NCBI GenBank assembly: GCA_040752415.1
Contig: JBFMGU010000032.1
Location: forward strand, 1-56,306
Length of the DNA: 56,306 nucleotides
Direction: 5' to 3'
DNA from: Myxococcota bacterium
Lineage (GTDB): Bacteria; Myxococcota; JACRCW01
Each line of letters begins with the position of its first letter. Within the stretch, counting starts at the first letter, position 1. Shown piece after piece: positions 18,628-35,662 of the stretch. The position numbers and the translations under genes were made by a program. The notes beneath the pieces were generated by a model. The model was given only the letters and a program-made list of their open reading frames with translations, did not search any database and was not told the DNA's origin.

Positions 18628-20046
18628 TCAAGCGCGAGAGAGGGCACCCCCACCAGCATTCGTCGCGCGCAACGCCACCAGCTGCTGCTCCCGGTCATCC
18701 CGGTAGAACATGTTGTACGTGTCAAACGGGATGATCCGCCCGTCAGGATGCACGATGTGCACGCAGGTCTTCTTTACCGAGCGCACGTCGAAGTTGTGGG
18801 GATCCAGGAACTGCATGATGAGCACGCGGAACACGTTCTCGTACGTGATGCCTTCGGGCACCTGCACGGGCGGGAGGCAGCACAGCAGGTTCGTCAGCGC
18901 CGCGGTGGAGCTCTCCGGCGAGTGTGACGTCGAGAACAGCCGGAACACGTGGTCACGCAGCGAAGGGCTGCGCTCGTAGATGATCGTGTTGCGCTCGCCA
19001 CGGAGAAGCACCTCGGGGTCCACCATGCGCGTGAGCGGCAACACCTGCCCTTCCACCTTCAACGCGTAGCCCATCGCCAGACAGTCGGGATGGCAGGGCA
19101 CGGGAATGACGTCGGCGGGCTGGAACACGTCCCATTGCTCCAGGATGTTCCGTCGCACCTCCGAGAGGGTGAGCCGATCGGTGGCGGGGTTGAAATGCTC
19201 CAGGCGCCCCGCGGACTGGATGGGCTGGAACGTCACGCCGCGCACACACCGCTGCTGCACCGCGTAGCGCAGGAGGTCACCCACCTCGTCGTCATTGAGG
19301 CCCTTCTGGAGCGTGACCACCAGCGTGGTGGAGATGCCCAGCTCATTGAGCCGCTCCACCGCCTTCCGACGCACCTCCCGCAGGTCCGCGCCCCGCAACG
19401 TGCGCAGCGGTCCCTCGCGCAGCGAATCAAACTGCAGGTACACCTCGAAGCCCTTGCGGTACGTCGAGAGCCGCTCGGCGAACGCAGCGTCATTGGCAAT
19501 GCGGATGCCGTTGGTGTTGAGCATCAGGTGCTTGATGGGCCGCGCCTTGGCCGCGTCCATGATGCGGAAGAACTCCGGGTGCAGCGTGGGCTCTCCGCCG
19601 CTGAGCTGCACCACGTCGGGCTCGCCCTCGTTGCGCACCACGCAGTCCAGCATGTGCTCCACCTGCTCCAGCGTGCGGTGGGTCTGCCGCGACGGCGAGG
19701 AATCCGCGTAGCAGACCGGACACGTGAGGTTGCAGTGGTCGGTCACCTCCACCAGCGTCAGGCAACTGTGCTGTTCGTGGTCGGGACACAGGCCGCAGTC
19801 ATAGGGACAGCCGTGCTGGATGGTGGTGTTGAAGCGCAGCGGCACCTGCGCCGGCTTCAGGAAGCTGCGACACAGTTTGTAGTAGTCGACGTCGGTGGAG
19901 ATGAGCACGCGCTCGCTGCGATGCGTGGGACACCACTTGTGCAGGTAGACGTTGCCGTCCTGGAAGATGACCTTGGCTTCCACCTTGGTCAGGCACGTCG
20001 AGCAGACGCTGTTGGTCAGTTCGTAGAACAGGTACGGCCGGTCCAT
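18628..20046 (-). CDS. Radical SAM protein, tetraether synthase (Tes/MJ0619)-like family
   Basis: N-terminal CSTC...CPTH, GCPYDCGLCPDH, rSAM motif CNLTCPVC, SGGEPT, NTNG, YLQFD, CHPDC, C-terminal DPHNFD...CVHIVHPDGRIIPF. Confidence 0.85.
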   Translation of the reverse strand: MDRPYLFYELTNSVCSTCLTKVEAKVIFQDGNVYLHKWCPTHRSERVLISTDVDYYKLCRSFLKPAQVPLRFNTTIQHGCPYDCGLCPDHEQHSCLTLVEVTDHCNLTCPVCYADSSPSRQTHRTLEQVEHMLDCVVRNEGEPDVVQLSGGEPTLHPEFFRIMDAAKARPIKHLMLNTNGIRIANDAAFAERLSTYRKGFEVYLQFDSLREGPLRTLRGADLREVRRKAVERLNELGISTTLVVTLQKGLNDDEVGDLLRYAVQQRCVRGVTFQPIQSAGRLEHFNPATDRLTLSEVRRNILEQWDVFQPADVIPVPCHPDCLAMGYALKVEGQVLPLTRMVDPEVLLRGERNTIIYERSPSLRDHVFRLFSTSHSPESSTAALTNLLCCLPPVQVPEGITYENVFRVLIMQFLDPHNFDVRSVKKTCVHIVHPDGRIIPFDTYNMFYRDDREQQLVALRATNAGGGALSRA

Positions 20047-20087
20047 GGTCCTTCCCGCTCCGACGGTGGTATCCGTCTCCCCATAGC

Positions 20088-20822
20088 ATGCACCCGGTCC
20101 TCTTCCACGTCGGAGCAACGCCGGTTCCGTCGTACGCGGTGATGGTGGGGCTGGGATTCCTGGCCGCGTGGCTCATCCGTCGTGCGGAGGTGCGTCGGCT
20201 GGGGCACGCGCGACAACCGGGCTACCTCTGGGTGGGCGTGGGCTGTCTGCTGGGTGCCATGCTGGGGTCCAAGCTGGGCATGCTGCTGTTTGAGCCGCCC
20301 GAGGACTTCGCGCGCCTGCTGGCGCAGATGACGTCGTGGGATTTCTCCGGGAAGACGGTGGTGGGCGGGCTGGCCGGCGGCTACGTGGGTGTGGAGGTGG
20401 CCAAGAAGCTGGTGGGCATCACCACGTCGACGGGTGACGCGTTCGCGGTCGCGGTGCCCGCGGGTCAGGCACTGGGGCGCGTGGGGTGTCTCCTCGAGGG
20501 ATGCTGCTACGGCACGACCTGGAACGGGCCGTGGGCCATCCACCTGCACGGCGCGCTGCGACATCCCGTGCAAGCCTACGAAGCGGTGATGGACCTGGCT
20601 CTCGCCGCGATGCTCTTCACCATCCGTCGACAAACCCGGCCCGCGGGGCACCTCTTCAAGGTGTATCTCGTCGGATACGGGATGACGCGGTTTCTCCTGG
20701 AGTGGCTGCGTGGTGATCCGGCACTCACGTGGGCAGGTCTCACCTTGGTGCAGTGGGTCTGCCTGGCCGCGGTGATCGGCTTTGGCCGTCGGGTGTGGGG
20801 ACGGAAGCTCGTCGGAGCTTGA
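20088..20822 (+). CDS. Lgt-family (prolipoprotein diacylglyceryl transferase-like) membrane protein
   Basis: MHPVLF..G...SYAVM, GKTVVGGLAGG, GRVGCLLEGCCYG, HPVQAYE, RFLLEWLR. Confidence 0.85.
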   Translation: MHPVLFHVGATPVPSYAVMVGLGFLAAWLIRRAEVRRLGHARQPGYLWVGVGCLLGAMLGSKLGMLLFEPPEDFARLLAQMTSWDFSGKTVVGGLAGGYVGVEVAKKLVGITTSTGDAFAVAVPAGQALGRVGCLLEGCCYGTTWNGPWAIHLHGALRHPVQAYEAVMDLALAAMLFTIRRQTRPAGHLFKVYLVGYGMTRFLLEWLRGDPALTWAGLTLVQWVCLAAVIGFGRRVWGRKLVGA

Positions 20823-20896
20823 CCCTCCGCCGCACGCCACCTATCGACGTCACGCGGCGCCCGACGACACGCCGCCCAGCTGTGGAGGACGACGGG

Positions 20897-21832
20897 ATGA
20901 CTCGCCGACGAAGCAGCGAACGTGAACCCTTCGCCAGTGGCCGCACCCGTTCCTGGCTGGGCTGGGTCGTCGTGATGAGCGTGCTTGCGGGTCACGCGTC
21001 GCATGCCCATGCGCAGGCAGCGGCCCCTCCTCCGGAGCAACCCGCGCCGACACCGGAGCCTCCGGTCGTCGAGACACCTCCGGAGCAACCTGCGACGCCG
21101 GAACAACCCGCCTCTCCGCCCGCCGACGACACCGAGGAGCTCCCCTCCCTGGGCGTCCCCGAAGAGCCCGCGCCGCCACGTCGTGAGGAACCTCCCGTCA
21201 GCGTCCCGCCGCCGCCGTCGTTGTGGGACACCGAGCTGAAACCCGTGGCGACCTTCACACTGGTTCCCGTTGTGGCCGGGATGCTGGGCATGCTCTCCGG
21301 CGCATTGGCGGGAGCAGTGCTGTCCGCGGCGCTGGTGATTCCCTCCGCGTTGATGGTCCGCTTCGCCACGCCGTCACGGGAGATCTCCACGACGGGGATC
21401 TTCACCTTCTTCGCCGCGCCCCCCGTGTGCGCGTGGGCCGGCGCCATGGCGGGTTACCTCGTGGCTCGCGCGGTGGGAGCGGCAATGACGCCGGTGCAGC
21501 TACCTGATCGTGCGTCGCGCGGCGCCCGGGTTGCCACCTTTGCCGCCACCGACCTCCTCGCCCATCTCGTCGTGTTCATCCCCTTGGTGGCGCTGACGGT
21601 GGCCTTTGGCGCCGCCATGGGATGGACCTCAGGCGCGTTGTCGAGCGCGTCGCAGCCGTTCTTCGTCGTGGGACAACCCACCCCGCGACAAATCATGTTC
21701 GTCACCGGCGCGTTCTACACATTGCTCGCGGCCATGGTCGTGTGGCCCGCCGCGGCCGCCGTGGTGCAGCTCATCACGCCTGTCGCCTCCCTCGTGCTCT
21801 CCGGCGTCGTTGCGGAAGGTGGTGCCCCGTGA
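20897..21832 (+). CDS. Membrane protein: signal peptide, Pro/Glu-rich linker, several TM helices
   Basis: GGAGG before ATG 20897; signal ending AHA; PPEQPA repeats; about four long hydrophobic segments. Confidence 0.65.
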   Translation: MTRRRSSEREPFASGRTRSWLGWVVVMSVLAGHASHAHAQAAAPPPEQPAPTPEPPVVETPPEQPATPEQPASPPADDTEELPSLGVPEEPAPPRREEPPVSVPPPPSLWDTELKPVATFTLVPVVAGMLGMLSGALAGAVLSAALVIPSALMVRFATPSREISTTGIFTFFAAPPVCAWAGAMAGYLVARAVGAAMTPVQLPDRASRGARVATFAATDLLAHLVVFIPLVALTVAFGAAMGWTSGALSSASQPFFVVGQPTPRQIMFVTGAFYTLLAAMVVWPAAAAVVQLITPVASLVLSGVVAEGGAP

Positions 21833-22797
21833 GCGTGCGTGCAGCGGTGTTGACCATCTGCCTGTTGACGCCGCCCTCGGCGTGGGCCACCGCCGACGTG
21901 ACCGATGCACCGCCCCCGTCGGAGACCGCTCCCACCATGCCGGAGCTGCAGCCTGCTCCCGCGCCCACGCCGGAAAAGCCTGACGACGCCACGCCCACCA
22001 ACGAGGCAGCACCTGCGCGTCCTTCCCCTCCCTCCCCGACGACACCACCCGACCCACGTTGGTGGCGTGCTCCGCGTTGGCTGCGGCTGTGGGCATCTTT
22101 GGCTTCGGTGGCGGCGCCCACGGCGGTGGTGGTTGGTGTTGCGGGCGCCGCGGTGCTGGGCACCTGGGGCTTGGTGGCTGCGCTCCTGGGGCCGGGTCTG
22201 GTGGATGCGGGAAGTCGTGGGGACTCGCAGGCCGCGTGGCAGGGGCTCTACCCGGTCCTTCCCTTCGTGACGCTCGCGGCGTTCGTGACGGCAGTCATTG
22301 GCGCCATGGCCGTGATCGGTTACCTCGGCGTGCACCTGGTGGGGCCCATGCTCGCGCCGTTTCCCGACGAGGACGGGCTCGCGGTGCCGCGCTTGCGACG
22401 CGGCGTGGTCTTCCTGCTGCTCGACGCCATCATCCACGTGGCCGCGTTTGCGGTGAGCGCGGTTGGCGGCGTGGTGGGCGGTGGAGCGCTGGGCGGACTG
22501 CTGGCGTTCCTCATCACGCTCACGCCCTACACGGTGTGCCTGCCCTTCCTGCTTCCCGTCGGAATCCTGTTCTCGGTGCCGCCGGAATACGGGTGGCCCA
22601 ATCCCGCCGCGATCTACGCGCTGACCGCCATCCCGGCGTACATGGTGCTGTGTGGCGGCGGCGTGTTGGGTGGCGCGCTGGTGGCCGCGCAGTTTGGTAC
22701 TCCCGTCGTCACGCTGCTGCTCCTGGAACGCACGTGGAGTCTACCGCCCACGTTCCCACCGCCCTCCGAGGAGACAACGGATGACCTCGAGCCCTGA
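21829..22797 (+). CDS. Membrane protein with the same architecture as the upstream gene
   Basis: GTGA overlap with the previous stop; signal ending AWA; Pro-rich linker; multiple hydrophobic segments. Confidence 0.65.
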   Translation: MSVRAAVLTICLLTPPSAWATADVTDAPPPSETAPTMPELQPAPAPTPEKPDDATPTNEAAPARPSPPSPTTPPDPRWWRAPRWLRLWASLASVAAPTAVVVGVAGAAVLGTWGLVAALLGPGLVDAGSRGDSQAAWQGLYPVLPFVTLAAFVTAVIGAMAVIGYLGVHLVGPMLAPFPDEDGLAVPRLRRGVVFLLLDAIIHVAAFAVSAVGGVVGGGALGGLLAFLITLTPYTVCLPFLLPVGILFSVPPEYGWPNPAAIYALTAIPAYMVLCGGGVLGGALVAAQFGTPVVTLLLLERTWSLPPTFPPPSEETTDDLEP

Positions 22798-23227
22798 TCC
22801 CTTCCGCGTCGGCGTGGGTCCCCGCGCCGTGGCCTCCATCCTCGGCGTGGTGGCGGTGGCGTATTTCGTGTGGTGGGGCTGCTTCGCGGGAGTGCTGCCA
22901 CTCGCGGATTCCTGCGGTGGGCTGTGTTGCCCGGAGTGTCAGTGCTGCACGTCGCCCACGTCGGATTCCATGGCCTACTGCAGTCAGCCGGGCGAGAAGT
23001 GCAAGATCGAGTGCGAGAACCCCGGCACGTTCTTCTTCTGCACCTGTCCCGAGACCGGACTCGCCGACACCTGCTTCTGCCAGCAGGACGGCACGTATGA
23101 GCCGTGTGTCCACACGTGCGACTCGCCCGGAGTCACCGGTGAGTGCGTGTGTGTCACCGGCGTGGGACCCGGAACGTGCACCTGTGGTGACGACGGAACG
23201 TATGACCCGTGCCTGCTCCGCGGCTGA
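22781..23227 (+). CDS. Membrane-anchored Cys-rich protein (148 aa, 21 Cys) with an internal duplication
   Basis: GAGGAG before ATG 22781; one TM ending WWGC; two copies of C-x2-PG-x4-CxC-x7-TCxC-x2-DGTY-x-PC. Confidence 0.7.
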   Translation: MTSSPDPFRVGVGPRAVASILGVVAVAYFVWWGCFAGVLPLADSCGGLCCPECQCCTSPTSDSMAYCSQPGEKCKIECENPGTFFFCTCPETGLADTCFCQQDGTYEPCVHTCDSPGVTGECVCVTGVGPGTCTCGDDGTYDPCLLRG

Positions 23228-23270: not shown

Positions 23271-24575
23271 TCACGCCGCAAGTACACGCATCCGGTAGGG
23301 CAATACCTGGGCAATGCGCGGGATGGCGTAGGGCGTGCGGAGCAGCGGCGCGTCCACCGTGAGCTCAACGTGGCGCACCACCGCACAGATGACGACGAGG
23401 AAGTGGAGCTCGGCGAGCTGCTGGCCGGTGCACTTGCGCGGTCCGTGCAGGAACGGGACGAACGAGAACGGCTCGCGCGGCTGCGGCGTGGCCCAGCGGT
23501 CCGGGTCGAACTCGTCGGGGCGGTCCCAGAAGTCGGGATGATGGTGCAGCGCGTAGAGCATGAGCGCCACCTCCTGCGCCGCGGGGAAGGTCTGCCCGTC
23601 GTGCTCGAACGCGGCTCCCGCCCGGCGCAGCACCGCCATGGCCACGGGATAGCGACGGAGGACCTCGAGGAAGAAGCGCTGCACGTCGGGAAGGCGTCCG
23701 AGGTCGTCGTGCACAGGGCCCGCTTCCCCGAGGACGCGCGTCACCTCGTCACGCAGACGCTGCTGCCACGCGGGGCGCCGCGCAAGCTCGTGCAGCGCGC
23801 ACGTCACGACGTAGTCGATGGCATTGAACGCGCCGTAGATGTGGTTGAGCGCATCGGTGGCCTCGGGAAGGCCGAAGTCCGCGCCGGCGATGTCACGCAT
23901 CCAGCCGGGACGGTCAGGGGCGCCAGCGTCGCGCAGCGTGGCCACGGTGTCCCGCATCCGGCGGACCATGCGCGACTCCTCCCAATAGTTGTGCAGGAGC
24001 ATCGGCAGGTGGAGCAGCTTCTCCAGGCCCATGCCCAGGAGGTCCAGTCGACGTCGCGGATCCTGGTTCATGGTGTGTGACTTGTAGTCCAGCAGCTGGC
24101 GGGCGTAGCGGCACACCGCGGGCTCGTCGACGCGCAGGCCGTAGCCCACGTGCAGCACGGTGTTCACGCCCAGCTCCACCATGTCACGGTAGAGGTCTGC
24201 GCGTGGCGTGCCATCGGAAAGCGCGCGCAGGTGCTGGACGGTGTGTGCGTGCATCCACGCCGCGTGCGACGAGAGCTGGCTCGCCTTGAACGCCGGCTGC
24301 ACGGCGCGGGTCTGCCGCAGCCAGCTCTCGCCGTCGCGGAAGAGGACGCCGTCGGCGCCGGGCAGGTTGCGGAGGAACTGGTAGACGCGCGACCGCTTCT
24401 CGGTGTGGACGCGCTCCAGGAGAACGGTGCGCACCAGCGCCGGGTCGCAGGTGTACAGCGTCCCGCCGCTGAGGAACGACTTGCCATGCTCCACGCAGGC
24501 CTGACCCCAGCCGGCGTGGCCGTGCTGACGCATCAACGCGGACAGCTGTGACGACGAGACGCTGGGGATCGTCAT
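23271..24575 (-). CDS. Cytochrome P450 (atypical I-helix)
   Basis: Heme motif FLHGPRKCTG, ExxR EVLRRYP, PDEFDPDRW; I-helix HIYGAFNA; ATGA coupling to the upstream P450. Confidence 0.92.
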   Translation of the reverse strand: MTIPSVSSSQLSALMRQHGHAGWGQACVEHGKSFLSGGTLYTCDPALVRTVLLERVHTEKRSRVYQFLRNLPGADGVLFRDGESWLRQTRAVQPAFKASQLSSHAAWMHAHTVQHLRALSDGTPRADLYRDMVELGVNTVLHVGYGLRVDEPAVCRYARQLLDYKSHTMNQDPRRRLDLLGMGLEKLLHLPMLLHNYWEESRMVRRMRDTVATLRDAGAPDRPGWMRDIAGADFGLPEATDALNHIYGAFNAIDYVVTCALHELARRPAWQQRLRDEVTRVLGEAGPVHDDLGRLPDVQRFFLEVLRRYPVAMAVLRRAGAAFEHDGQTFPAAQEVALMLYALHHHPDFWDRPDEFDPDRWATPQPREPFSFVPFLHGPRKCTGQQLAELHFLVVICAVVRHVELTVDAPLLRTPYAIPRIAQVLPYRMRVLAA

Positions 24576-25837
24576 GGGACAGCCTCGAAGGTGAGCGGCA
24601 GTGCGTTGCGAAAGCGCGGCGCCAGGAAGATGTGCAGCGGGGGATCCTCGTCGCGCGCGTGGACGCGGGCGCGCCGGACCACGCTGGCCACCACCTCGGA
24701 CAGCACCAGCTCGGCAAGCGTCTGTCCCACGCACTTGCGAGGTCCAACGAGAAACGGGATGAACGCGCCCTCCACCACGACGTCACCGCGCAGCCAGCGC
24801 TCGGGCTGGAATTCGTCCGGGTGCCTCCACGACGCGGGATCGTGGTGCAGCGCGTGCACGAGGAGGAGCAGCTCCGTGCCCGCGGGCAGCCTCTCCCCCT
24901 CGACGTCGACCGGCGCGCCGGTGCGGCGTGCCACCGCCATGGTGACCGGGTGACACCGCAGCACCTCCCGGACAAACGCGCGCACCCGGGGGATGTCCCA
25001 CGCACGCTCCGGGCCGCGCGTGACGTCGCCATGAAGCACCGGGAGCAGCTCGGGGTGTCGTCCGAGCCGGAGCAGCGCGCAGCTCACCACGAAGGGCAGC
25101 GCGTCATAGGCCCAGAACAGATGCGAAATGGCGCTATCCGCGTCCGGCGATGCCAGGGCGCCGCCCAACCGCCCCAACCAACTGTCATCCGGCGGGGTCC
25201 CGTCGGGAACCAGGGCGCGTCGCTGAGCCTGGTAGTCCCGGAACGTCCGAAGCGACCGGAGGACCAGGCCAGGGAGCTGCGTGAGGGCCTGGCCGGCGCG
25301 GATGTGCGGGTCGTCAAAGCGGAAGCGCGGGTCGTGCTGCGTGTCCAGCCAGCGACGGAGCGCGCCGATGAGCTCCGCGCCCCCCGAGCCCCCAGGCACG
25401 AGGCCGAATGCCAGCGAGACGAAGAGATCCGCGCCGAGCTGGATGCATGACTCGCGCGCGTCAGTCAGGGTGCCCTGCTGGCACCAGCGTCCCACGTGGT
25501 CGTCCACGACGCGGGCCACGCGCGACGAGATGGCGTGCACGTGCGGGCGCGAGAAAACCGGGAGCAGCGCACGCGCCTGCTTCTTCCAAGCCTCGCCGTC
25601 GACAAACACCATGCCCCTCTGGCCCGGCATCCACCGCGACAGCAGCTTGTAGACGACGGGGCGTTCGCGGATGTGCTCGCGGCCCATGAGCACCTCATGG
25701 ACCACCCGCGGGTCCGCCGTTGCCACGAAGGGCCCGAGCCGGAAGGTGCGCCCGTTGGCGTCGACGATGTCACGCCAGGCCGCCGGACCGCGTGCGTGCA
25801 GCGCGGACTTGAGGTCGGCGTTGGCAACGGACTTCAT
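24572..25837 (-). CDS. Cytochrome P450 (atypical I-helix)
   Basis: Heme motif FLVGPRKCVG, EVLRCHP, PDEFQPERW; I-helix HLFWAYDA; starts 8 bp after the fusion gene stop. Confidence 0.92.
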   Translation of the reverse strand: MKSVANADLKSALHARGPAAWRDIVDANGRTFRLGPFVATADPRVVHEVLMGREHIRERPVVYKLLSRWMPGQRGMVFVDGEAWKKQARALLPVFSRPHVHAISSRVARVVDDHVGRWCQQGTLTDARESCIQLGADLFVSLAFGLVPGGSGGAELIGALRRWLDTQHDPRFRFDDPHIRAGQALTQLPGLVLRSLRTFRDYQAQRRALVPDGTPPDDSWLGRLGGALASPDADSAISHLFWAYDALPFVVSCALLRLGRHPELLPVLHGDVTRGPERAWDIPRVRAFVREVLRCHPVTMAVARRTGAPVDVEGERLPAGTELLLLVHALHHDPASWRHPDEFQPERWLRGDVVVEGAFIPFLVGPRKCVGQTLAELVLSEVVASVVRRARVHARDEDPPLHIFLAPRFRNALPLTFEAVP

Positions 25838-25845
25838 GGCGAGAC

Positions 25846-28077
25846 TCAGTAGTGGCGTTCCAGGAGGTACCAGCCAAACGCGCGCAGGTAGATCTTCGTG
25901 GTTGATTCCACGACGAGCGGGTCAAGCGCGGCCCACGCCTCTTCCACCATGGTGCGCGCCTGCTCCTCACAGGCCTTCAGCGCGCCGCAGTCCTCCATGA
26001 GCCGGATGGCCTGCCCAATCGTCGTCGTCGCGGTGGGCCGGGACTGCAGGATTTCCCACAGCTGGTGGCGGGCCGGGCGCTCCAGCTTGCCCATGGCCTT
26101 GGCCACCGGCGCGGTGATCTTGCCCTCGGTGATGTCCTCGCCGCGCGTCTTGAGGCCGCCCTGGAAGCCGCGCAGGTTCAGCACGTCGTCAATGATCTGG
26201 AACGCGGTGCCGTACGCCTCGAACAGCCGGCCCAGCGCCTCCACCTGCGCATCGTTCGCGCCGGCCATCAACGCCGCAATGCGCGCGAGGTTGGCGGGCG
26301 GCACGCCTGACTTCAGCCGGTGCGTTGCGAGCACGCTGGCTTCCAGGCTCGTGGCGTCGCCACTTTCAACAACGGACGGCAAGCGGTGCCACTGGCCGGA
26401 AATGTCCATCGCCTGGCCCGCGTGCGCGGCGCGCAGCGCCTCAAAGTAGCTCTCGTAGATGCGGAGAACCACGCGGTCGGGCAGCTTCTCCCGCAGCAGC
26501 GGAAGCTGCGCGAGGAACATGCAGGCGCTGCCCGCATTGATGGCCAGCGGCTCACCGTGCACCTTGTGGCAGGACGCCCCCCCGCGCCGGACCACGGAAC
26601 GGTCCTGCACGTCGTCGATGATCAGCGACCCGGTGTGGAGGATCTCGGGCACCGCGAGCCAGTGCGCGTACTGCTGCGAATCACCGCCCACGACATCCAT
26701 GGCCGCCAGGAGCGCGTAGGAACGCCACGCCTTGCCACCGCGGGTGACAATCTCGCGAACCGGCGTGACGACGTGGCGGTGGTACTGCGCCAGGTCCATC
26801 CCCTCGGTGAAGTGCTCGTGCCCCGGGTCGGAGACCAGGCGCGCGAGCTGGGGCGAATCCGCCGTTGGAGGAAGGAGCTGGTCGACCGCCTGACGCGTGG
26901 CGCGGCCAACGGCCTCGAAGAAGCGGTCCTGGGTCTCGACGTTGTTGAACCCGCTGCGCTCAACGAAGCCGAGCCCACCGACGCTCCTGCCGCCCATGGT
27001 CCCCTTGAGGCGCATGCGACCCTCCCAGAACGCGGGCGGGCTGATCAGCGTGGGGAACTCCTGCGCGTTGAACTCGGCACTGACGTCCACGTCGAGCTGC
27101 AGCCCGGGGACCGCGAGGTGGTAGCGCACCGGGTAGTCATTGAACGTGCGCGTGCTGGTCCACCGCGTGCCCTCGGTGAGCGAGAACTCACTGTGCTGGC
27201 TGCGGTTGCCCTGCGGGTCGACGACGATGAGCCAGTGGCCGATGCTCCTGCCTCCACCCTCGACGTCAAAGAGGTCGTACGCGCTGATGTCGTAACCGTT
27301 GTCGAGCTGGGCGCTCAGCCAGTTCCACGCCACGCTGCCAATCCGTCGCGCCTCCTTGCGTTCGTCGGCGGGACGGCCGAACTCGTGGTCGTACCAGCCC
27401 ATGCCCTTCGTGACCGGCAGGGTGGCACCCTCGACGAGCACGGAGCCCTCCACCCGGCAGCGCGGCGTGAAGTAGTAGAACATGTCCTCCGCGGACGCGC
27501 CCACCACCTGCCCTTCGTCACCGTGGCGGACCATGGGCTTCTCGGGCGTGAACACCAGCCGCGCGCCGTGCTTGCCGTCCTCGTGGAGGAGGTCCAGCGC
27601 GTAGCTTCCCTCGGGAGTCTTGTGCAGGCGGCAGGTGCCAAACCGCAGGTCCATCACCGACGGGTCGACCACGGGATTGACGTCAAAGAGACGATCCGGG
27701 CGAGGAACCGTCTTCCGCTGCAACACCTCGGCCATGGCGCGGCGGAGCCGTTCATCCCGCGTCCCTTCACCCCGGTTGAGACGCTCCAGCGTCACGTCGG
27801 GCGCGCAGCGGTCCAGCACCGGGTCCATGACGTAGCGGTGCCGTTGCACGTCAACCAGGGCCCAGGTCACCGAGTGCGAGTGGATGGGCGCGCCACGCTT
27901 GTCCTTGCCGACCACCATCCGGAAGAAGGACGCAAAAACCGAGAACGGCCGCCCGTCCTCCGTCTCAAGGTGGCTGTTGAGGTACCACCACTCCAGCGTC
28001 GAGGATTCGTGCGGCAGATCCTGGACGGCAAGATCAATTGGACCGGCTCCTGGCCAGTCCGCGGGGCGCTGATTCAC
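25846..28077 (-). CDS. Fusion: AttH/CrtC-like (lipocalin-like double barrel) domain + trans-isoprenyl diphosphate synthase (GGPPS-like)
   Basis: aa 1-375: EWWYLNSHL, YYFTPR, GWYDHEFG, WNWLSAQLDNG, YPVRY, FWEG, GFVE. aa ~380-743: GGKAWR, LHTGSLIIDDVQDRSVVRRG, GQAMD, LKSG, FQIIDDVLN, EDITEGK. Confidence 0.88.
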   Translation of the reverse strand: MNQRPADWPGAGPIDLAVQDLPHESSTLEWWYLNSHLETEDGRPFSVFASFFRMVVGKDKRGAPIHSHSVTWALVDVQRHRYVMDPVLDRCAPDVTLERLNRGEGTRDERLRRAMAEVLQRKTVPRPDRLFDVNPVVDPSVMDLRFGTCRLHKTPEGSYALDLLHEDGKHGARLVFTPEKPMVRHGDEGQVVGASAEDMFYYFTPRCRVEGSVLVEGATLPVTKGMGWYDHEFGRPADERKEARRIGSVAWNWLSAQLDNGYDISAYDLFDVEGGGRSIGHWLIVVDPQGNRSQHSEFSLTEGTRWTSTRTFNDYPVRYHLAVPGLQLDVDVSAEFNAQEFPTLISPPAFWEGRMRLKGTMGGRSVGGLGFVERSGFNNVETQDRFFEAVGRATRQAVDQLLPPTADSPQLARLVSDPGHEHFTEGMDLAQYHRHVVTPVREIVTRGGKAWRSYALLAAMDVVGGDSQQYAHWLAVPEILHTGSLIIDDVQDRSVVRRGGASCHKVHGEPLAINAGSACMFLAQLPLLREKLPDRVVLRIYESYFEALRAAHAGQAMDISGQWHRLPSVVESGDATSLEASVLATHRLKSGVPPANLARIAALMAGANDAQVEALGRLFEAYGTAFQIIDDVLNLRGFQGGLKTRGEDITEGKITAPVAKAMGKLERPARHQLWEILQSRPTATTTIGQAIRLMEDCGALKACEEQARTMVEEAWAALDPLVVESTTKIYLRAFGWYLLERHY

Positions 28078-28244
28078 GTGTTGTTTCTCGGCAGGCTTGA
28101 GGCGTGAGACCGGCGTGCATCGTGCCGGCCTAACACATTAGGCGCGGGAGGTTAACCACGGCGTCAAGCCCGCTGTCAACAGAATTCGCTTGCCCGTTGG
28201 TGGCGGGACAGTGCAAGAAGCTGAGCAATTGCACGAGGATATTG

Positions 28245-30560
28245 ATGCCTGCGATTGAACCAGGGTTTGCCTGGGGTTTGTGCGCGCGCCTGCTCGCGCT
28301 GGTTCTTGCGGTGGCGTTCACCTCCCTGGCCATCGAGATACTCCCGCTGTGCGGGTCGCGCGGGATCACGCCGGCAAGACAGAAGCTGCGTCGCATGCGC
28401 GAGGACCTGGGCCTCTGGCGCGTGTTGCTGCGGCACCCGTCGGTGCTCTGGTTGTCGTCGTCGGATACGGCGCTGCGTTGGCTGCCGCGGGTGGGCCTGG
28501 TCGCGGCGCTCCTGGCCGCGGCGGGTATCGCGTCGGGGCCCATGTGGGCGGTGTGCTGGGTGGCCTACCTCTCGCTTGACGTTGTCATTGGGCTGACCTT
28601 CCCATGGGAAAGCATGCTGCTGGAGGCGTGCTTCCTCGCCATCTTCCTGCCTCCCCTCGACCCGTTGCCGTCGTTGGCCATGCCGGCGCCGCCGCCCGTA
28701 CTGGCATTCGCCTACCATCTATTGCTGTTTCGGGTTCTCTTCGGCTTTGGCAAGCACAAGTTTAGCCCCGACGCGAAGAAGGACCCCAACTACCTGCGCG
28801 GCTTCCTCATCAGCCAGCCCATTCCATCCCCTCTGGGATGGCTCGCGTTCCGCACGCCACGGGCCATCCTGGTGGCGGCCCACGCGCTCATGTTTGTCGT
28901 GGAGATTCCCTTGCCGTTCCTGGTGTTCTTCCCCGGCTGGCCGCGCCTGCTGGCCGCGGCGGGTTTTGTGGGACTGATGCTGGGAATCCAGGCCATGGGC
29001 AACTTTGGCTTCTTCAACGTGCTCGTCATCGTGCTGAGCGTTTCCCTGTTGGATTCGCGCTCGGTGCTCGAGCAGGACTGGCGGGCGCTGCTGGACGTGG
29101 ACATGCTGCCGCTGGCGCTGGTGGCCACCTGGGTGGTGTTGGCGGGCTTGATCCACCTGCCATTCAGCACGTGGGTGGCGCGCGGCTGGCCGGAGTGGCC
29201 GGTGTGGGGCGCGGTGAAGACGGCGCCCATGCGTGCGCTGATGGCGGTGATTCGCGGCACCATGCCCTTCCGCACCGTGCACGCGTATGGCGTGTTTCCG
29301 CCGCGCAGCACCGCGCCCCTGAAATGGATCCCGGTGTTCGAAGGCACACGCGACGGCGTGACGTGGGAGCCGTTCCGCTACAAGTACATGCCCGTGGACG
29401 AGAAGAGCCCGCCACGCTTCGTGGCGCCGCATTGTCCGCGGCTGTGCCACTGGGCGCTGTATGAGGGCTTCGGCTTCTCGTCGGGAAACATGCTGGGAAC
29501 CCTGTTCAGCATGGGCAATCCGCATGACATCTCACCGGTGTCCGGCGCGGACCGCGTGATGCAGCGGCTGCTGGAAGGTGACGGTCCGGTGCGCGAGCTG
29601 TTCCGTGCGCCGCCATTCCCGGACGCGCCCCCCACCGCCATGCGGATGCGCCTGCACATGCTCTGGCCAACCACGCCCCAGGAGCGCCGCGCCACCGGCA
29701 ACTGGTGGCACGTACGCGTCGTGGATGAGCACCTTTCCGCGCGCGGCAATGCTCCCGAGCTGTGGCAGCGCTGGATTCCCGACGCCGTGCAGTTCCACCC
29801 GGATGATCGCTGGGCGCGACGGCGCATTGCGCGCCTCAGGCCGCTGCTTTCCGGCGCTGGCACGCTGGAAGCGCGTGTGCTCTCGGTGCTGGATGACAAG
29901 GCCAGGACCCTGTGGCCGGTCTTCTGGAACGACGTCGTCCCGACCGCACGGGGCCTTGGCGCCAACCGCTGGAGCACCATCCAGGAGGACTCCGACGCGC
30001 TGCGCGAGCGTCACGGACCGGCCGGTGTGGAGGCGCTGGACCGCATCCGCGGCGCCGTGGCGACGACCCTGCTGGAATCCATCGAGCCCCATGTGCTGCA
30101 GCGCCGGGAACCCTTTGTGATCGTTCGCACCTATTTCCATGCATTCATGTTGATGCAGCAACAGATGCTGGAGGGCCTCCCGCACTGCGAGCGCGTCGTG
30201 GCGGACCCGACCATGGCGGTGGGGCTGGCGTCGTCGCTGGACAATCACCAGGGACTCGCGCTCCTGGCGTTGGTTCGGCCGGGGATCATCACGTTCTTCG
30301 CGCGCAAGACACCGCTGCTGGGCGTGGTGGTGCCGCCGGGCCCTCCGCCGCCGGATATCACGCCGGGATTCCAGTTCCTCCTGCCGTTTCTTGCCGAAGC
30401 GTGGCCCCAGCCCGGACAACGCATTCCCAACGTGGTGCAGACCCCGGAAGGCGAATGGCTCCTGGATGGCCAGGACGTGCGCGCCGGGCTCCCGGTGAAG
30501 CCCACAGCCCAGCTCCCGCTCAACGAGGAGCCGGCGCGCGCTTCGCTTCGTGCTCGATGA
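28245..30560 (+). CDS. Lipase maturation factor (LMF1)-family membrane protein with C-terminal extension
   Basis: FPWESMLLEACF, LLFRVLFGFGKHK, QPIPSPLGW, GNFGFFN, YGVF, EGTRDGVTWEPFRYKYMP, APHCPRL; GAGG before ATG 28245. Confidence 0.82.
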   Translation: MPAIEPGFAWGLCARLLALVLAVAFTSLAIEILPLCGSRGITPARQKLRRMREDLGLWRVLLRHPSVLWLSSSDTALRWLPRVGLVAALLAAAGIASGPMWAVCWVAYLSLDVVIGLTFPWESMLLEACFLAIFLPPLDPLPSLAMPAPPPVLAFAYHLLLFRVLFGFGKHKFSPDAKKDPNYLRGFLISQPIPSPLGWLAFRTPRAILVAAHALMFVVEIPLPFLVFFPGWPRLLAAAGFVGLMLGIQAMGNFGFFNVLVIVLSVSLLDSRSVLEQDWRALLDVDMLPLALVATWVVLAGLIHLPFSTWVARGWPEWPVWGAVKTAPMRALMAVIRGTMPFRTVHAYGVFPPRSTAPLKWIPVFEGTRDGVTWEPFRYKYMPVDEKSPPRFVAPHCPRLCHWALYEGFGFSSGNMLGTLFSMGNPHDISPVSGADRVMQRLLEGDGPVRELFRAPPFPDAPPTAMRMRLHMLWPTTPQERRATGNWWHVRVVDEHLSARGNAPELWQRWIPDAVQFHPDDRWARRRIARLRPLLSGAGTLEARVLSVLDDKARTLWPVFWNDVVPTARGLGANRWSTIQEDSDALRERHGPAGVEALDRIRGAVATTLLESIEPHVLQRREPFVIVRTYFHAFMLMQQQMLEGLPHCERVVADPTMAVGLASSLDNHQGLALLALVRPGIITFFARKTPLLGVVVPPGPPPPDITPGFQFLLPFLAEAWPQPGQRIPNVVQTPEGEWLLDGQDVRAGLPVKPTAQLPLNEEPARASLRAR

Positions 30561-31827
30561 GGTCCGCGGCACGCCGCACACCGCCCGCGTCACGGAAGCT
30601 CCGCCGCACCGCTTCCATGGGCACACGCAGCGACGGGTCCGCCACGGCACGGGAGATGGCCTCGCGCACGCCGTCCGACGTCAGACGCGTCTTGTCCAGG
30701 CGAATCCCCGCCCCGAGATCAACGACGCGCATGGCCATGTCCAGCTGGTCCGCGAAAAGAGGAATCCCGACAATGGGCTGGCCGGCCGCCAGCGCTTCGT
30801 GCGCGGTGTTGATGCCGCAGTGTGAGACGACGGCGCGCACATTGGGATGGTGCATGATCGCCAGCGGGGACGGAGCCCAGGGCATGATGCGCACGTTGGA
30901 GGGCGGCGGCCCGCGGAGCGCCTCGGGTGTGCGCAACGCCCAGAGCACGCGGAACGCGTCGGAGCGGAAGCCGTCCAGCAGGGTGTCCAACAACGCGGGT
31001 CCGGCGCGGGAAACGGTGCCCAGGCTCGCGTAGACCACCGGCGGTCCCTCGCGGAGCCAGCGGTCGACGTCGTCCGGGAGCGCCGGCACGCTGGATGGAA
31101 GCATGGGGCCCACCATGTGGACGTGCGGCGGAATGTTGTGCGGGTACTCCACGCCAAACGTGGTGTTCACCAGCACGGTGCGTCCAGCCAGGCGCGTGTT
31201 GACGTCGGCCGGTGGCAGATTCCGCTTGCTGCGTTCAGCGTTGAGCTGCTTTCCCAGGGTGGCGTTGGCAACGCGTGCGGCAAGCCACCGCAGTGGCCGC
31301 GCAACGACGCGATCGAGCGCGCCCAGCGCGCGGATGGATTTCCCGGAGAAGAAGAGGGGCACGTCGCTCCCCGGCCTGATGAGCTCGACGGAGAGGATTC
31401 CCAGCAGATCCGCGTTGTTGATGACAACGGGGGTCCGCATGGATTCCGCGGCATCCAGCGCGCCCTGCGTGGCAACGTCAGCAACGACAACGTCGGGTGA
31501 GATCGTCCGGATTGCCTGGAGCGCGCCGTCAAAGGTGCGGGACCAGCGCGCCTGCAGCCATTTCACGATGACGGTGGCGCTGCGAAGAAAGTCCGGCTCG
31601 TGGGTGACCTGAGCCTCGATGTCAGCCCACGCGGGGGGCTCGCCGTCCAGCGGGCCCAGTGACAGCGCTCGCACGCCGTCGGTCCGCGCGCGTTCGACAA
31701 AAGGCATCGCTTCATCATGCGTGGCGACCGTGGCCTCCCAGCCGCGACGACGAAGCTCCCCGGCCTGCAGCAGCAACGGATGGATGTGCCCGGGGAGGGG
31801 AATCGCCATGAACAACGCGTGCGGCAC
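30520..31827 (-). CDS. GT1-family UDP-glycosyltransferase (small-molecule acceptor type)
   Basis: N-terminal IPLPGHIHP (catalytic His), PDVVVAD, VYASLGT, PSPG-like WAP...VVSHCGINTAHEALAAGQPIVGIPLFADQ; GAGG before GTG 31827; overlaps the LMF1 3' end by 41 bp. Confidence 0.9.
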   Translation of the reverse strand: MPHALFMAIPLPGHIHPLLLQAGELRRRGWEATVATHDEAMPFVERARTDGVRALSLGPLDGEPPAWADIEAQVTHEPDFLRSATVIVKWLQARWSRTFDGALQAIRTISPDVVVADVATQGALDAAESMRTPVVINNADLLGILSVELIRPGSDVPLFFSGKSIRALGALDRVVARPLRWLAARVANATLGKQLNAERSKRNLPPADVNTRLAGRTVLVNTTFGVEYPHNIPPHVHMVGPMLPSSVPALPDDVDRWLREGPPVVYASLGTVSRAGPALLDTLLDGFRSDAFRVLWALRTPEALRGPPPSNVRIMPWAPSPLAIMHHPNVRAVVSHCGINTAHEALAAGQPIVGIPLFADQLDMAMRVVDLGAGIRLDKTRLTSDGVREAISRAVADPSLRVPMEAVRRSFRDAGGVRRAADLIEHEAKRAPAPR

Positions 31828-32010
31828 AACAACCTCGGCAATGCAGCTCGGCCAGCTCCCAAGGGAATGCCAACGCGGACTTGGGTTTGTGAGCGGTCTC
31901 ATCCCCCTGCTGTGGTGCGGCCGTCAAGGATCATGAGGCCCGCCGTGTGACCCGGACCCGCACCGCCCGGGAAACCACCTGGCAACGAACAACGCGTTAG
32001 ACTGACCGTC

Positions 32011-33588
32011 ATGCTCATCCACAGCGCACTCCTGACCGCCAGCCTTGTCACGCTCGCCAGCGACGCGGGCTCCTCCGCCGCCATCCCACGTCGCCCCGAC
32101 ATCATCCTCGTCGTCCTCGACGACCTGGACAAAGTGGTCTCCGATCCTTTCGTCGAACGCATCATGGAGAAGACCACGGCGCTGCGCAGTCAGGGCGTCA
32201 CGTTTGATTTCGCATTCACGCAGACCTCCATCTGCTGCCCCGCGCGCGCGACGATCCTCACCGGCAAATGCGGCCACAACACCGGCGTCCTCACCAACGG
32301 CGGGCCCACCGGCGGATGGACCACGTTCCGGAAGAACGGACTGGATGACGTGACCATTGCGCGCACGCTGGAGGACGCGGGCTACCGCACCGTGGCCATT
32401 GGCAAGTACATGAACCAGTACGAGTTCTCCGACGGAAAGGCGCCGCCCGTTCCGGCGGGATGGACGCAGTGGGACGTGATCGTCGACGCGGGCATCAAGG
32501 GCTACCGCGGCTACAACTTCAACCTGCTCCACCACCGCAGCGGTGACGCCAAACCCACCGTGGTCCCCTGCGGTGACAAGGAGAAGGACTACTCCACCGA
32601 CGTGTTCCGCGACATCGCGCTCAAGTTCATCGACGACGAGTCCGCCCGCCAACCACAGGCGCCGCTGTTCATCTACCTTGCGCCCACCGCACCGCACCTG
32701 CCGCTTCCCGCGGCGCCGCGTCATCAAGCCCAGGCCGCGAAGTGGAAGGGCTCCCTGCCCACCAAGCGCCCCAACTTCTTCTCCGACGGAGAAACCGTGG
32801 CGGACAAGCCGGCCTGGCTGCGGGACTCGTGGCGGAAGCGACAGCGCGGCATCCTTCCCCGGTTCACCGAGCGGGATTGGAATGACCGCCTGGGCTCGCT
32901 CTACGCCGTCGACGAGATGGTGGCGGCGATTGTCGAGCGGCAGAAGGCGCGGGGGCGCTGGGAAGACACGCTGCTGATCATCGTCTCCGACAACGGGTAC
33001 AACCTGGGTGCACACGCGCTGGTGCACAAGATGGCGCCCTACGAGGAGTCCATCCGTGTTCCGCTGATGATCGTCGGTGGCGCGAACGCGGGGCTGCGCA
33101 GCGGTGAGCACGAATCACGCTGGGCCACACTTGCCGACCTGGCGCCCACCGTCCTGGACTTCGCGGGTCTGCCCGCCAACAACGACATGGATGGTGCCTC
33201 GCTGGGCCCGCTGCTCCGTCGCGGCGCACCACCGCCACCCACGTGGCGCACGGCGATGCTGCTTGAGTACGACGGAGGCGGTGCCGCCAACGGGTTCGGC
33301 GTCGGCGAGGAGCTGCGCGGCTTCGTGGACCTGATCACGCCCGCCGTCGCCCTCGACGTGCCCTCGTACCGGGGATTGCGCGCTCGGGTGGCGTGGCAGG
33401 GCGCCGAGCACACCTGGAAGTACGTGGAGTGGCCCACCGGCGAGCGCGAGCTCTACAACCTGGACACAGACCCCTACGAGCTCAACAACCTCCTCGCCGG
33501 CAAGTCGTCGACGTACCAGGAGCTCGCAACGGCGCTGCACCAGAAGCTGGAGGCGCTGAAGACCTGTCGCGGCGCAAGCTGCCGGTGA
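32011..33588 (+). CDS. Secreted formylglycine-dependent sulfatase (N-acetylglucosamine-6-sulfatase-like)
   Basis: PDIILVVLDD, CCPARATILTG (CxPxR), IGKYMN, APHLP, SDNGY, KMAPYEESIRVPL, ELYNLDTDPYELNNL. Confidence 0.9.
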   Translation: MLIHSALLTASLVTLASDAGSSAAIPRRPDIILVVLDDLDKVVSDPFVERIMEKTTALRSQGVTFDFAFTQTSICCPARATILTGKCGHNTGVLTNGGPTGGWTTFRKNGLDDVTIARTLEDAGYRTVAIGKYMNQYEFSDGKAPPVPAGWTQWDVIVDAGIKGYRGYNFNLLHHRSGDAKPTVVPCGDKEKDYSTDVFRDIALKFIDDESARQPQAPLFIYLAPTAPHLPLPAAPRHQAQAAKWKGSLPTKRPNFFSDGETVADKPAWLRDSWRKRQRGILPRFTERDWNDRLGSLYAVDEMVAAIVERQKARGRWEDTLLIIVSDNGYNLGAHALVHKMAPYEESIRVPLMIVGGANAGLRSGEHESRWATLADLAPTVLDFAGLPANNDMDGASLGPLLRRGAPPPPTWRTAMLLEYDGGGAANGFGVGEELRGFVDLITPAVALDVPSYRGLRARVAWQGAEHTWKYVEWPTGERELYNLDTDPYELNNLLAGKSSTYQELATALHQKLEALKTCRGASCR

Positions 33589-33591
33589 CGC

Positions 33592-35535
33592 TCAGCGACG
33601 ACGCCGTCGCAGCATCCACAACGCCACCACGGCCCACACGGCGCCGCGCAGCTCGGACGCACCCGCGTTCACGGAGCAGCCACAGCCAGCCGCTTCGTCG
33701 GCGTTCGCCGTTCCAGCATCGTCGTCGTTGATGGTCAGCGCGCCACCGTCCCCGCCGGACCGGCCCGCATCCGCGCCCACCGCGGCATCACCGCCCTGGG
33801 TGCCGGCGTCATCGCCCACGGCGGCGTCCGCGCCCTGGGTACCCGCGTCGTCCTGCGGCGTGATGACACCGCCGTCGGTGCGAGGCGCCGTGGCATCCAC
33901 GCTGCCGGCGTCGACGTCACCCGGACCACCCGCGTCCGTGGGTCCCGGCGTCCCCGCGTCTTCCTCCGGCGTCACCGCGCTGCCGACGACGATGTCATCC
34001 AACGTCACCCGCGCCTCCGCCTGGAGACACACGGTGCTGTACGCCTCCAGCTCGAACGCGAGTGTCACGGTCTGGTTTGCATAGGCCGCCAGGTCCACCA
34101 CGCGCTCGTTCCAGGTGTTCTCGGTGATGTCCTCGAACATGGCCTGCTCACCGTCGACGTTCTCGCCGCTCACCGTCACCCGCAGCTCCGCGTAGGTGTT
34201 GATGTTGATGGCGGCCAACAGCTCCAACATGCGCGCGTAGCGCAGGGTCGGGGCGGAGCCCAACGTGAAGACGCGGGAGAAGCTGGCGCTCACCACGCCA
34301 ACCTGGCAGCCCGACTCCGGCGAGAGGACCTCACCCTGGATCGCGCCGCTTCCCACGCTGCCTGTGTGATCGTCGGTGACGAGCGTGAACTGCGGATCGC
34401 GCATCCATCCCGTCAGGTCGTAGCCGTCGGCGTCGGAGAAGGTTTCCGCGGCTCCCACCGGCGTGACACCGGCGTCCGTGACCGTGTTTCCGGCGTCGGG
34501 AGCGCCAACCGCCGCGTCCGGGGAAACGGCCGCATCCGCCGCCCCACCCGCGTCCAAGACGGGAGCTCCGGCATCCTGGGTCGGCGCGTCGAGCAAGCCG
34601 AAGAAGCGCGCAATCTCCCGCGTGGAGCAGATGTCCACGTCGAGGATGTACGCCCCGGCCGTCCCGCAGCTCTCCGGCGTGCTCCCGGGATTCACCGGCG
34701 TGCCGTGCTGCATGTTGTCGATGGTGTGCCGCTCGACGAGGACCGTGTTGTTTGCATCCCGCCAACGCATCGTCGCGTCGCGCGCCACGGTGACCTGCTC
34801 GGTGGGCTGCGTGGAGAGACCGTGCACGTTGGTCCACTGCTGCGCAGCCTCGTCGGCGTTCACCACCTGCACCGTGGTGTCCGCGTCGCCGTGCCAGATG
34901 GACACACGCGGCCACGGACCGGAGTGGCTGCTGGCGTTCCGCACCTTGTCACCCCATTGCGCCGCCGTGTTCGCCTTGGGACCGTTCATGCAGCCCAGCG
35001 CGTCGGTGAGGCCCACACCGCAGCGGTAGGGCACACCGGCAATCACCGCGCCGGCCGCGAACACGTCGGGATAGGTGGCCAACATCACCGCGGTCATGGC
35101 GCCGCCCGCCGAGAGGCCGGTGACGAAGATGGCGTTGTCGTCGACGGTGGTGTTGCCGCGCACGTGGTCGACCATCTGCATCAGCGAGAGCGCCTCGCCC
35201 TGGCCGCGCGTGATGTCCCCGTCCTCGAACCAGTTGAAGCAGCGGTTCTGGTTGTTGGCCGTCTTCTGCTCCGCCACGACGAGACCCACGCCCAGCTCAT
35301 CCGCCAGGTCCACCCACCCCGTGCCCGTGGCGTACGCGGGACCCTGCTGCGTGCAGCCGTGGAGCACCAGCACCAGCGGCATGGGTGAGCGTGGTGACGT
35401 GGGGATGTGTTGGTACATGACCAGGTTGCCGGGGTTGGTCCCGAACCCGGTCACTTCTTCCAACGCGTGAGCTGCACCGACGGGGAGAAACAACGTGAAC
35501 AACAGGGACGAGAAGGCAATCCGAAAGCTGCGCAT
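33592..35535 (-). CDS. Extracellular PHB depolymerase-family esterase with extra beta-domain, DAG linkers and MYXO-CTERM-like anchor
   Basis: FGTNPGNL, LHGCTQ, CFNWF, GLSAGG, WHGDADTTV, MQHGTP; C-terminus GCGCSV...AVWAVVALWMLRRRRR. Confidence 0.88.
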   Translation of the reverse strand: MRSFRIAFSSLLFTLFLPVGAAHALEEVTGFGTNPGNLVMYQHIPTSPRSPMPLVLVLHGCTQQGPAYATGTGWVDLADELGVGLVVAEQKTANNQNRCFNWFEDGDITRGQGEALSLMQMVDHVRGNTTVDDNAIFVTGLSAGGAMTAVMLATYPDVFAAGAVIAGVPYRCGVGLTDALGCMNGPKANTAAQWGDKVRNASSHSGPWPRVSIWHGDADTTVQVVNADEAAQQWTNVHGLSTQPTEQVTVARDATMRWRDANNTVLVERHTIDNMQHGTPVNPGSTPESCGTAGAYILDVDICSTREIARFFGLLDAPTQDAGAPVLDAGGAADAAVSPDAAVGAPDAGNTVTDAGVTPVGAAETFSDADGYDLTGWMRDPQFTLVTDDHTGSVGSGAIQGEVLSPESGCQVGVVSASFSRVFTLGSAPTLRYARMLELLAAININTYAELRVTVSGENVDGEQAMFEDITENTWNERVVDLAAYANQTVTLAFELEAYSTVCLQAEARVTLDDIVVGSAVTPEEDAGTPGPTDAGGPGDVDAGSVDATAPRTDGGVITPQDDAGTQGADAAVGDDAGTQGGDAAVGADAGRSGGDGGALTINDDDAGTANADEAAGCGCSVNAGASELRGAVWAVVALWMLRRRRR

Positions 35536-35662
35536 CGACCAACCATGAAGAGGAGTGGAACCCGCCCCGTACCGGGACGCGGCGAAGCGGGCATCGGACC
35601 TTTGACGGGGTGCGTCAAAACTCCGCGCGTCCTATGGCCGCATCCGCCGAGGAGAGCGGGAA

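Follow-up and report, generated by a model that had tools for sequence, protein, structure and literature searches.

A fusion of an AttH/CrtC-like double barrel with a trans-prenyltransferase as a candidate isoprenoid hydratase in a Myxococcota bacterium

What does a lipocalin-like double barrel do when it is fused to an enzyme that builds isoprenoid chains? The question is raised by a 743-residue protein encoded on a contig of a Myxococcota bacterium (GTDB lineage Bacteria; Myxococcota; JACRCW01; GenBank assembly GCA_040752415.1, contig JBFMGU010000032.1, positions 1 to 56,306; this whole stretch of 56,306 nucleotides is called the window below). A preliminary description, made from the sequence letters, had suggested that the barrel could be a non-canonical cyclase or a hydratase acting on the chain made by its partner, with two cytochromes P450 tailoring the product. 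The reading that we favour, at a probability of roughly 0.5, is that the synthase half makes a chain of C20 or longer, that the barrel hydrates an isoprene double bond of this chain to a tertiary alcohol and that neighbouring enzymes decorate the product. The fusion gene and its parts are as follows.

25846..28077, minus strand: fusion gene, 743 amino acids (aa) plus stop, GTG start (open reading frame (ORF) and translation, Pfam, AlphaFold2 (AF2) model)
27376..27993, minus strand: barrel 1, aa 29-234, Pfam CrtC N-terminal lipocalin, including EWWY 29-32 (Pfam, alignments)
27382..27396, minus strand: W228-Y-D230-H-E232 motif, within GWYDHE 227-232 (profile alignment)
26950..27333, minus strand: barrel 2, aa 249-376, Pfam Lipocalin_9, with WNW 251-253, QE 339-340, FWEG 350-353 and ER 373-374 (Pfam, alignments)
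26773..26949, minus strand: junction, aa 377-435, predicted helical (AF2 model, homologue alignment)
25849..26772, minus strand: prenyltransferase domain, aa 436-743 (Pfam, NCBIfam, alignment, PDB matches)
26602-26616, minus strand: first aspartate-rich motif (FARM), DDVQD 488-492 (translation, alignment)
26176-26190, minus strand: second aspartate-rich motif (SARM), DDVLN 630-634 (translation, alignment)

The barrel half is recognised by two Pfam families, CrtC on aa 29-234 (E 3e-17, 64.3 bits against a threshold of 22.5) and Lipocalin_9 on aa 249-376 (E 9e-19, 68.3 bits against 26.2). Modelled alone, it reaches a predicted local distance difference test score (pLDDT) of 91.2 and a predicted template modelling score (pTM) of 0.91. 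A ranking of solved folds by template modelling (TM) score places the AttH protein NE1406 (2ICH, TMt 0.85) first and kievitone hydratase (7A0T, TMt 0.78) second, followed by 25-phosphosteroid lyase (~0.52) and the decalin-forming pericyclases CghA, Fsa2 and Phm7 (TM 0.45-0.51). In a profile of 30 barrels, D230 pairs with the Asp of the kievitone hydratase motif WYDRQ and of the NE1406 motif WLDRE, and its motif is invariant in 25 of 25 and in 30 of 30 fusion sequences. WNW (aligned to WTW/WDW), QE and [FY]WEG are likewise common to the barrel, kievitone hydratase and NE1406, and EWWY is shared with NE1406. Strong constraint on the barrel is also visible in the 52 invariant positions among 340 in 25 sequences, 34 of which are polar or aromatic; mean pairwise identity in the same set is 50% for the barrel versus 61% for the synthase. 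Barrel 1 contains a family-specific helical insert of ~36 residues, absent from NE1406, in which D89, D108, E117, P125, P127 and D128 are invariant. No hydrophobic segment was found in the fusion protein, which suggests that it is cytoplasmic, like its synthase half. Residues 1-380 hold no DxDD motif, the barrel no class I motifs and the fusion itself no class I/II cyclase family of Pfam. Between the two activities that the preliminary description had left side by side, fold, aligned Asp motif and characterised relatives speak for the hydratase, whereas the motifs of a classical cyclase are missing.

The hydration step is proposed on account of this homology to AttH/CrtC hydratases. In the carotenoid 1,2-hydratase CrtC (PF07143), D268 is described as essential and as the proposed proton donor, Trp residues are described as stabilising the cation, and some activity on C20 geranylgeraniol is reported (PMC4717167, PMC12402844). 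Kievitone hydratase is described as hydrating an isoprene C=C to a tertiary alcohol (PMC5805349). A 2025 preprint presents the AttH-like Hgs as a hydroxylated glycerol dialkyl glycerol tetraether (hydroxy-GDGT) synthase and, by its account, the known members of the AttH-like family all convert isoprene double bonds to tertiary alcohols (bioRxiv 10.1101/2025.10.20.683597). The equivalence of the barrel residues to D268, W110, W283 and W285 of RgCrtC was judged through the alignment with kievitone hydratase and NE1406.

The C-terminal half appears to be an active trans-prenyltransferase because its motifs are intact. Pfam polyprenyl_synt (PF00348) matches aa 436-693 with E 4e-44 (151.2 bits against a threshold of 27, 247 of 251 profile positions), and beside the two Asp-rich motifs the translation contains GGK 447-449, RRG 497-499, EDITEGK 647-653 and GK-T 652-655. 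All 25 homologues have DDVQD, DDVLN, K449, R452, R497, R498, K589, K643, G652 and T655, and at least 90% of them keep K653. This domain has the same FARM, second Asp motif and Lys/Arg substrate-binding motifs as the short-chain trans-prenyl diphosphate synthases, but differs from them in reaching the cut-off of no NCBIfam model (best score 124 bits against a cut-off of 450). The models for IdsA (115 bits), geranylgeranyl diphosphate (GGPP) synthase (84) and farnesyl diphosphate synthase (80) score higher than that for octaprenyl synthase (60), all under cut-off, and the closest solved relatives are GGPP synthases (PDB matches up to E 5e-20). A DDxxN second motif is compatible with activity in eukaryotic GGPP synthases. 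Positions -5/-4 of the first Asp-rich motif are occupied by G483 and S484, which would be compatible with a product of C20 or longer; together with the Asn-ending second motif, these small residues presumably resemble eukaryotic type III GGPP synthases. The earlier estimate of 'C20 or longer', drawn from the -5/-4 residues, seems a fair one, and the chain product may be put at C20 or somewhat longer.

The two halves appear to form one rigid unit. In the full-length AF2 model (pLDDT 89.4, pTM 0.88) the last barrel strand leads into the synthase helices, and an alignment of 25 homologues from several phyla is free of gaps from residue 275 to residue 525. Atlas models of other fusion clusters superpose full-length on this model at TM 0.90-0.97. 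A helical junction of fixed length suggests that the chain is probably handed over directly from synthase to barrel. The profile searches and structure predictions that the preliminary description had proposed for both halves have thus returned CrtC/Lipocalin_9 and polyprenyl_synt matches and an AttH-like barrel fold.

In the proposed mechanism, the C-terminal domain would extend an allylic diphosphate with isopentenyl diphosphate to C20 or somewhat beyond, and the resulting chain would pass across the junction to the barrel. There, by analogy to the AttH/CrtC-type cofactor-free hydratases, the buried D230 would protonate an isoprene double bond that is trisubstituted and most likely lies at the omega end. 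W30/W31, W228, W251 and W253 would stabilise the tertiary cation, and capture of water would give the tertiary alcohol. In the window, the hydroxylated prenyl product might then be oxidised by two co-transcribed P450s and glycosylated by a glycosyltransferase of family GT1, while an LMF1-type membrane protein might handle the lipid at the membrane; this tailoring step is suggested because the gene content is common to a few related loci.

Several known systems resemble this arrangement in part. In the fungal fusions PaFS, EvVS and PvCPS, as proposed here, one polypeptide couples chain synthesis with the next step, and the prenyltransferase domain of PvCPS is among the PDB matches of the synthase half. 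The fungal proteins are described as carrying an alpha-helical cyclase partner on a long flexible linker (PMC11474042), whereas here the partner is a beta-barrel and the junction has a fixed length. CrtC, kievitone hydratase (7A0T/7A0Q) and Hgs share with the barrel the two-barrel fold (TM 0.78-0.85) and the motifs W-x-D-[HR]-[EQ], W-x-W, QE and [FY]WEG, and their published accounts describe the same cofactor-free isoprene hydration to a tertiary alcohol. These hydratases are stand-alone proteins and CrtC is reported to be membrane-anchored (PMC12402844), whereas the barrel is fused and has no hydrophobic segment; it is only 15-20% identical to the solved hydratase/AttH structures and has the additional helical insert. 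25-Phosphosteroid lyase, CghA, Fsa2 and Phm7 share the double-barrel superfold, but at TM 0.45-0.52 with a root-mean-square deviation (rmsd) of 9-11 Å and 10-13% identity.

The fusion is a large, uncharacterised family, widespread in Myxococcota, Bacteroidota and Actinomycetota. A search of 5.8 billion proteins gave 1050 matches, and in all 120 of the matches listed (49-100% identity; those named are from Telluribacter and Fibrella) CrtC, Lipocalin_9 and polyprenyl_synt occur together. Atlas fusion clusters are commonest in Myxococcota and Actinomycetota. No publication on the fusion came up in literature searches aimed at it or at its domain family. Within the window's phylum it is present in 25 of 400 other genomes, 23 of them from one family, and in none of the 60 nearest relatives of the window's genome; among 401 genomes sampled from the phylum of a Bacteroidetes metagenome-assembled genome (MAG) it was found once, too few for a synteny count there. 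A search of shorter proteins for split forms gave 23 matches, mostly contig-end fragments, of which P0124, P0125 and P0130 could be genuine barrel-only genes. The fusion gene was matched in two pieces, in different frames, at L128 (genome G247) and L130 (G268), which may reflect an interruption of the gene or a sequencing error. A eukaryotic (Haptophyta) cluster of 221-aa proteins in the Atlas is labelled Lipocalin-like/Polyprenyl synthetase, with a feature score of 0.79, too low for anything beyond a lead. In a FastTree phylogeny of 92 fusions (local supports only; partial sequences below 650 aa excluded), the window's fusion groups with L011 (61% identity, local support 100) inside a clade of 33 rows, and the same-phylum genomes all fall in the other clade, except one long-branch row (L127).

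The genes next to the fusion gene were compared with those at other fusion loci. The relevant features of the window are the following.

24572..25837, minus strand: P450-A, 421 aa (ORF, Pfam P450)
23271..24575, minus strand: P450-B, 434 aa counted from ATG (ORF, Pfam P450)
28078..28196, no strand: divergent intergenic region of 119 bp between the fusion gene and the LMF1 gene (ORF list, promoter scan)
28197..30560, plus strand: LMF1-family membrane protein, 787 aa, at least 7 hydrophobic segments (family match; homologues at other fusion loci)
30520..31902, minus strand: GT1 UDP-glycosyltransferase, macrolide-glycosyltransferase family, under cut-off (family match; orthologues at 9 other fusion loci)

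The fusion stop codon TGA is followed by 8 nucleotides (nt; gtctcgcc) and the ATG of P450-A, which in turn joins P450-B in an ATGA overlap; a longer GTG-start ORF of P450-B reaches 24734 and overlaps P450-A. Both P450s match Pfam P450 (E 7e-37 and 5e-40) and keep the Cys-ligand loop FxxGxRxCxG. The 119-bp intergenic region contains no sigma-70 consensus, and the promoter and terminator scan yielded nothing exceeding shuffled expectation. Much of the preliminary description is borne out here: the three minus-strand genes with an 8-bp gap and an ATGA overlap agree with the ORFs and the junction sequence, and the motifs EWWY, GWYDHE, WNW, FWEG, DDVQD, DDVLN and EDITEGK are all found in the translation. 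The Asp/Glu motifs that it had proposed to mutate are general features of the AttH family, present also in NE1406 and kievitone hydratase. Its statement that canonical cyclases, phytoene synthases and desaturases are lacking from the window is borne out as well: the Pfam families of terpene cyclases, phytoene synthases and desaturases matched none of the 37 further window ORFs scanned, ORFs without a Pfam match being counted as unassigned. It had overlooked the divergent LMF1-type membrane protein and the UDP-glycosyltransferase, which in the window's clade recur beside the fusion more often than P450s. In our view the window's cluster comprises P450-B, P450-A, fusion, LMF1 and GT1 (23271-31902) and is a variant of a clade-specific set.

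The synteny sample comprised 85 other loci, 5 from genome contigs and 80 of 289 metagenome matches. A fusion ORF was called in 85 loci (84 plus the window), with at least 3 kb upstream in 47 and at least 3 kb downstream in 45. Neighbours were counted by similarity to the window's genes and by clustering, with the following result.

P450 beside the fusion: 3 loci of 85
LMF1 beside the fusion: 4 loci
GT1 beside the fusion: 9 loci
FkbM methyltransferase beside the fusion: 8 loci
GT28/monogalactosyldiacylglycerol (MGDG)-synthase-like transferase beside the fusion: 7 loci
FAD_binding_4 oxidase beside the fusion: 3 loci
201-aa protein without Pfam family beside the fusion: 15 loci
~595-aa multi-pass membrane protein without Pfam family beside the fusion: 10 loci

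Full-length LMF1 homologues stand beside the fusion at L026 (50% identity), where the gene is divergent and adjacent as in the window, and at L042 (38% identity); partial ones are found at L085 and L017. L042, assigned to a Bacteroidota contig because of its type IX secretion tails, has the order fusion-LMF1-FkbM-GT28-P450-P450 in one direction. Genes that could decorate a hydroxyl (GT1, FkbM, GT28-like, FAD oxidase, LMF1, P450) occur at 15 of the 32 other loci in the window's clade, as against only 1 of 59 in the other clade. P450s related to those of the window are confined to L042 and L023 (40-42% identity to P450-B); a P450 at L058 was rejected as the same partner, being only 22-30% identical to the window's P450s. 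The coupling to two P450s that the preliminary description had pointed out is therefore real in this operon but rare elsewhere (3 of 85 other loci, 2 of them with related P450s, and none of 20 same-phylum regions), homologues being for the most part unlinked to P450s, which by that description's own measure tells in part against it. The P450 link is a local feature of this fusion and is not conserved in the family. In the other clade, the 201-aa protein is usually divergent and adjacent to the fusion, and the ~595-aa membrane protein is often the next gene; both are without a Pfam or NCBIfam match (for example L044:3374-3979 and L044:6467-8266; likewise at L046, L074, L081 and L083).

The proposed hydration has to be weighed against other functions of the barrel. 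The barrel could be a non-canonical cyclase, in which the terminal double bond is protonated by the Asp, as in a class II cyclase, and the resulting cation is trapped by other double bonds nearby, giving a cyclic C20 product for the P450s to tailor. The initiation chemistry would be that of CrtC, which its authors liken to squalene-hopene cyclase (PMC4717167), the ring-forming pericyclases CghA, Fsa2 and Phm7 are distant fold relatives, a canonical cyclase is absent from the window, and terpene-oxidising P450 models are among the NCBIfam matches of both P450s, albeit far under cut-off. We nevertheless regard cyclisation as unlikely: the accounts consulted describe no characterised AttH-family member that cyclises, the barrel has no DxDD, its closest structures are a hydratase and AttH rather than pericyclases, and the commonest partners are glycosyl- and methyltransferases, which require a hydroxyl. 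Improbable to a similar degree is a Rosetta-stone fusion of CrtE and CrtC, in which the synthase would supply GGPP for phytoene, the barrel would later hydrate the acyclic C40 end and GT1 would glycosylate it to 1'-hydroxy carotenoid glycosides. The GT1 and methyltransferase partners presumably parallel CrtX and CrtF, the carotene hydroxylases LUT5 and CYP97C1 are among the solved-structure (PDB) matches of P450-B, a CrtI-family desaturase scores above cut-off in 7 of the 11 fusion-bearing genomes tested, and CrtC proper is reported to use C40 carotenoids (PMC4717167). The window's genome (96.8% complete), however, has no CrtI-family gene above cut-off (best 133 bits against 238), nor have G268, G402 and G403, the last two being MAGs of unstated completeness and the fusion of G268 being apparently interrupted. 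Moreover, none of 105 fusion loci contains a phytoene-synthase-like or CrtI-like gene, the carotenoid cluster of G227 lies 1.3 Mb away from its fusion, and a fixed junction would be of little use between steps that are not consecutive.

Chemistry at the other end of the chain is also conceivable. As a beta-barrel substitute for a class I terpene synthase, the barrel might ionise or eliminate the allylic diphosphate and so yield a hydrocarbon or a geranyllinalool-type tertiary allylic alcohol. R354 (at least 90%) and R374 (invariant) are kept across the fusions and missing from the stand-alone AttH-like protein of the same genome, invariant acidic residues abound in the family-specific insert, and the next fold relative, 25-phosphosteroid lyase (TM ~0.5), handles a phosphate leaving group, a reaction taken from PDB titles only. 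This lyase match is weak (rmsd 9-10 Å, 11-13% identity), however, and the conserved Asp and aromatic residues are those known from the hydratases. At L005, from a Nannocystaceae MAG, a UbiA-family prenyltransferase, which requires a diphosphate donor, and a HAD phosphatase follow directly downstream of the fusion (L005:10224-11943), a hint that the product keeps its diphosphate there. Diphosphate-directed chemistry thus seems quite unlikely. Still less likely, in our estimate, is a non-catalytic barrel that would merely take up, measure or let go of the synthase's hydrophobic product: lipocalin-type barrels are reported often to bind lipids (PMC2954199) and the gene stands without pathway partners in most genomes, but a passive binder would hardly account for the 34 invariant polar or aromatic residues, the hydratase Asp motif among them. 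A bolder idea, doubtful though rather less remote, is that the barrel is a new beta-barrel terpene synthase acting on a chain still held by the synthase, with the acidic insert and the junction forming a composite inter-domain active site; it would either cyclise the omega end or capture it with a hydration that sets chain length and release.

Some observations also count against hydration followed by decoration. The acidic helical insert could signal a different chemistry. H239 and W241 of CrtC have no clear alignable counterpart in the barrel, where MFYYF stands upstream of the Asp motif, in an alignment that contained no CrtC. In the 20 same-phylum regions (±9 kb), P450, LMF1, GT1 and the other listed partners are all absent and no neighbour is conserved, which limits the decoration idea to one clade. 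Related P450s occur at just two other loci, and the few P450s among ~725 neighbour ORFs could be due to chance. The tree places the window's fusion apart from the other fusions of its phylum (except L127), so the cluster may have been acquired by horizontal transfer.

If hydration is correct, the fusion family would make hydroxylated prenyl diphosphates or alcohols within one protein and would be a bacterial counterpart, of a different fold, to the fungal synthase-cyclase fusions. No described pathway known to us takes a hydroxylated prenyl diphosphate or alcohol of this kind as a building block. The clade-specific partners (glycosyltransferases, methyltransferases, LMF1-type proteins and P450s) would then point to glycosylated isoprenoid lipids yet to be described. 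Hydratases of the AttH type are described as wanted biocatalysts for tertiary alcohols (PMC12402844), a use to which a soluble hydratase that brings its own substrate supply would be well suited.

Further genes of the window were left out of the cluster, since the radical SAM, LGT-like, small-ORF, sulfatase and esterase genes have a counterpart in none of the 85 fusion loci. A radical SAM protein with an HMPTM zinc ribbon (18628-20118, minus strand) matches the models for TrsS (319 bits, cut-off 490) and for the tetraether lipid synthase Tes (280 bits, cut-off 450). Its gene lies head to head, with an overlap of ~30 nt, with that of an Lgt-family diacylglyceryl transferase homologue (20088-20822, plus strand). 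The two may be a lipid-modifying pair, which was not found beside the fusions of the 85 loci. Across the plus-strand ORFs 20729-21832, 21622-22797 and 22652-23227, third-position GC switches frame several times (21100-23227); these ORFs, convergent to the P450 operon and without a family match, represent either a decayed gene or small genes of unknown kind. A sulfatase gene (32011-33588) is closely followed by two divergent genes of 647 aa and 324 aa (33592-36637), both of which encode a polyhydroxybutyrate (PHB)-depolymerase-type esterase domain.

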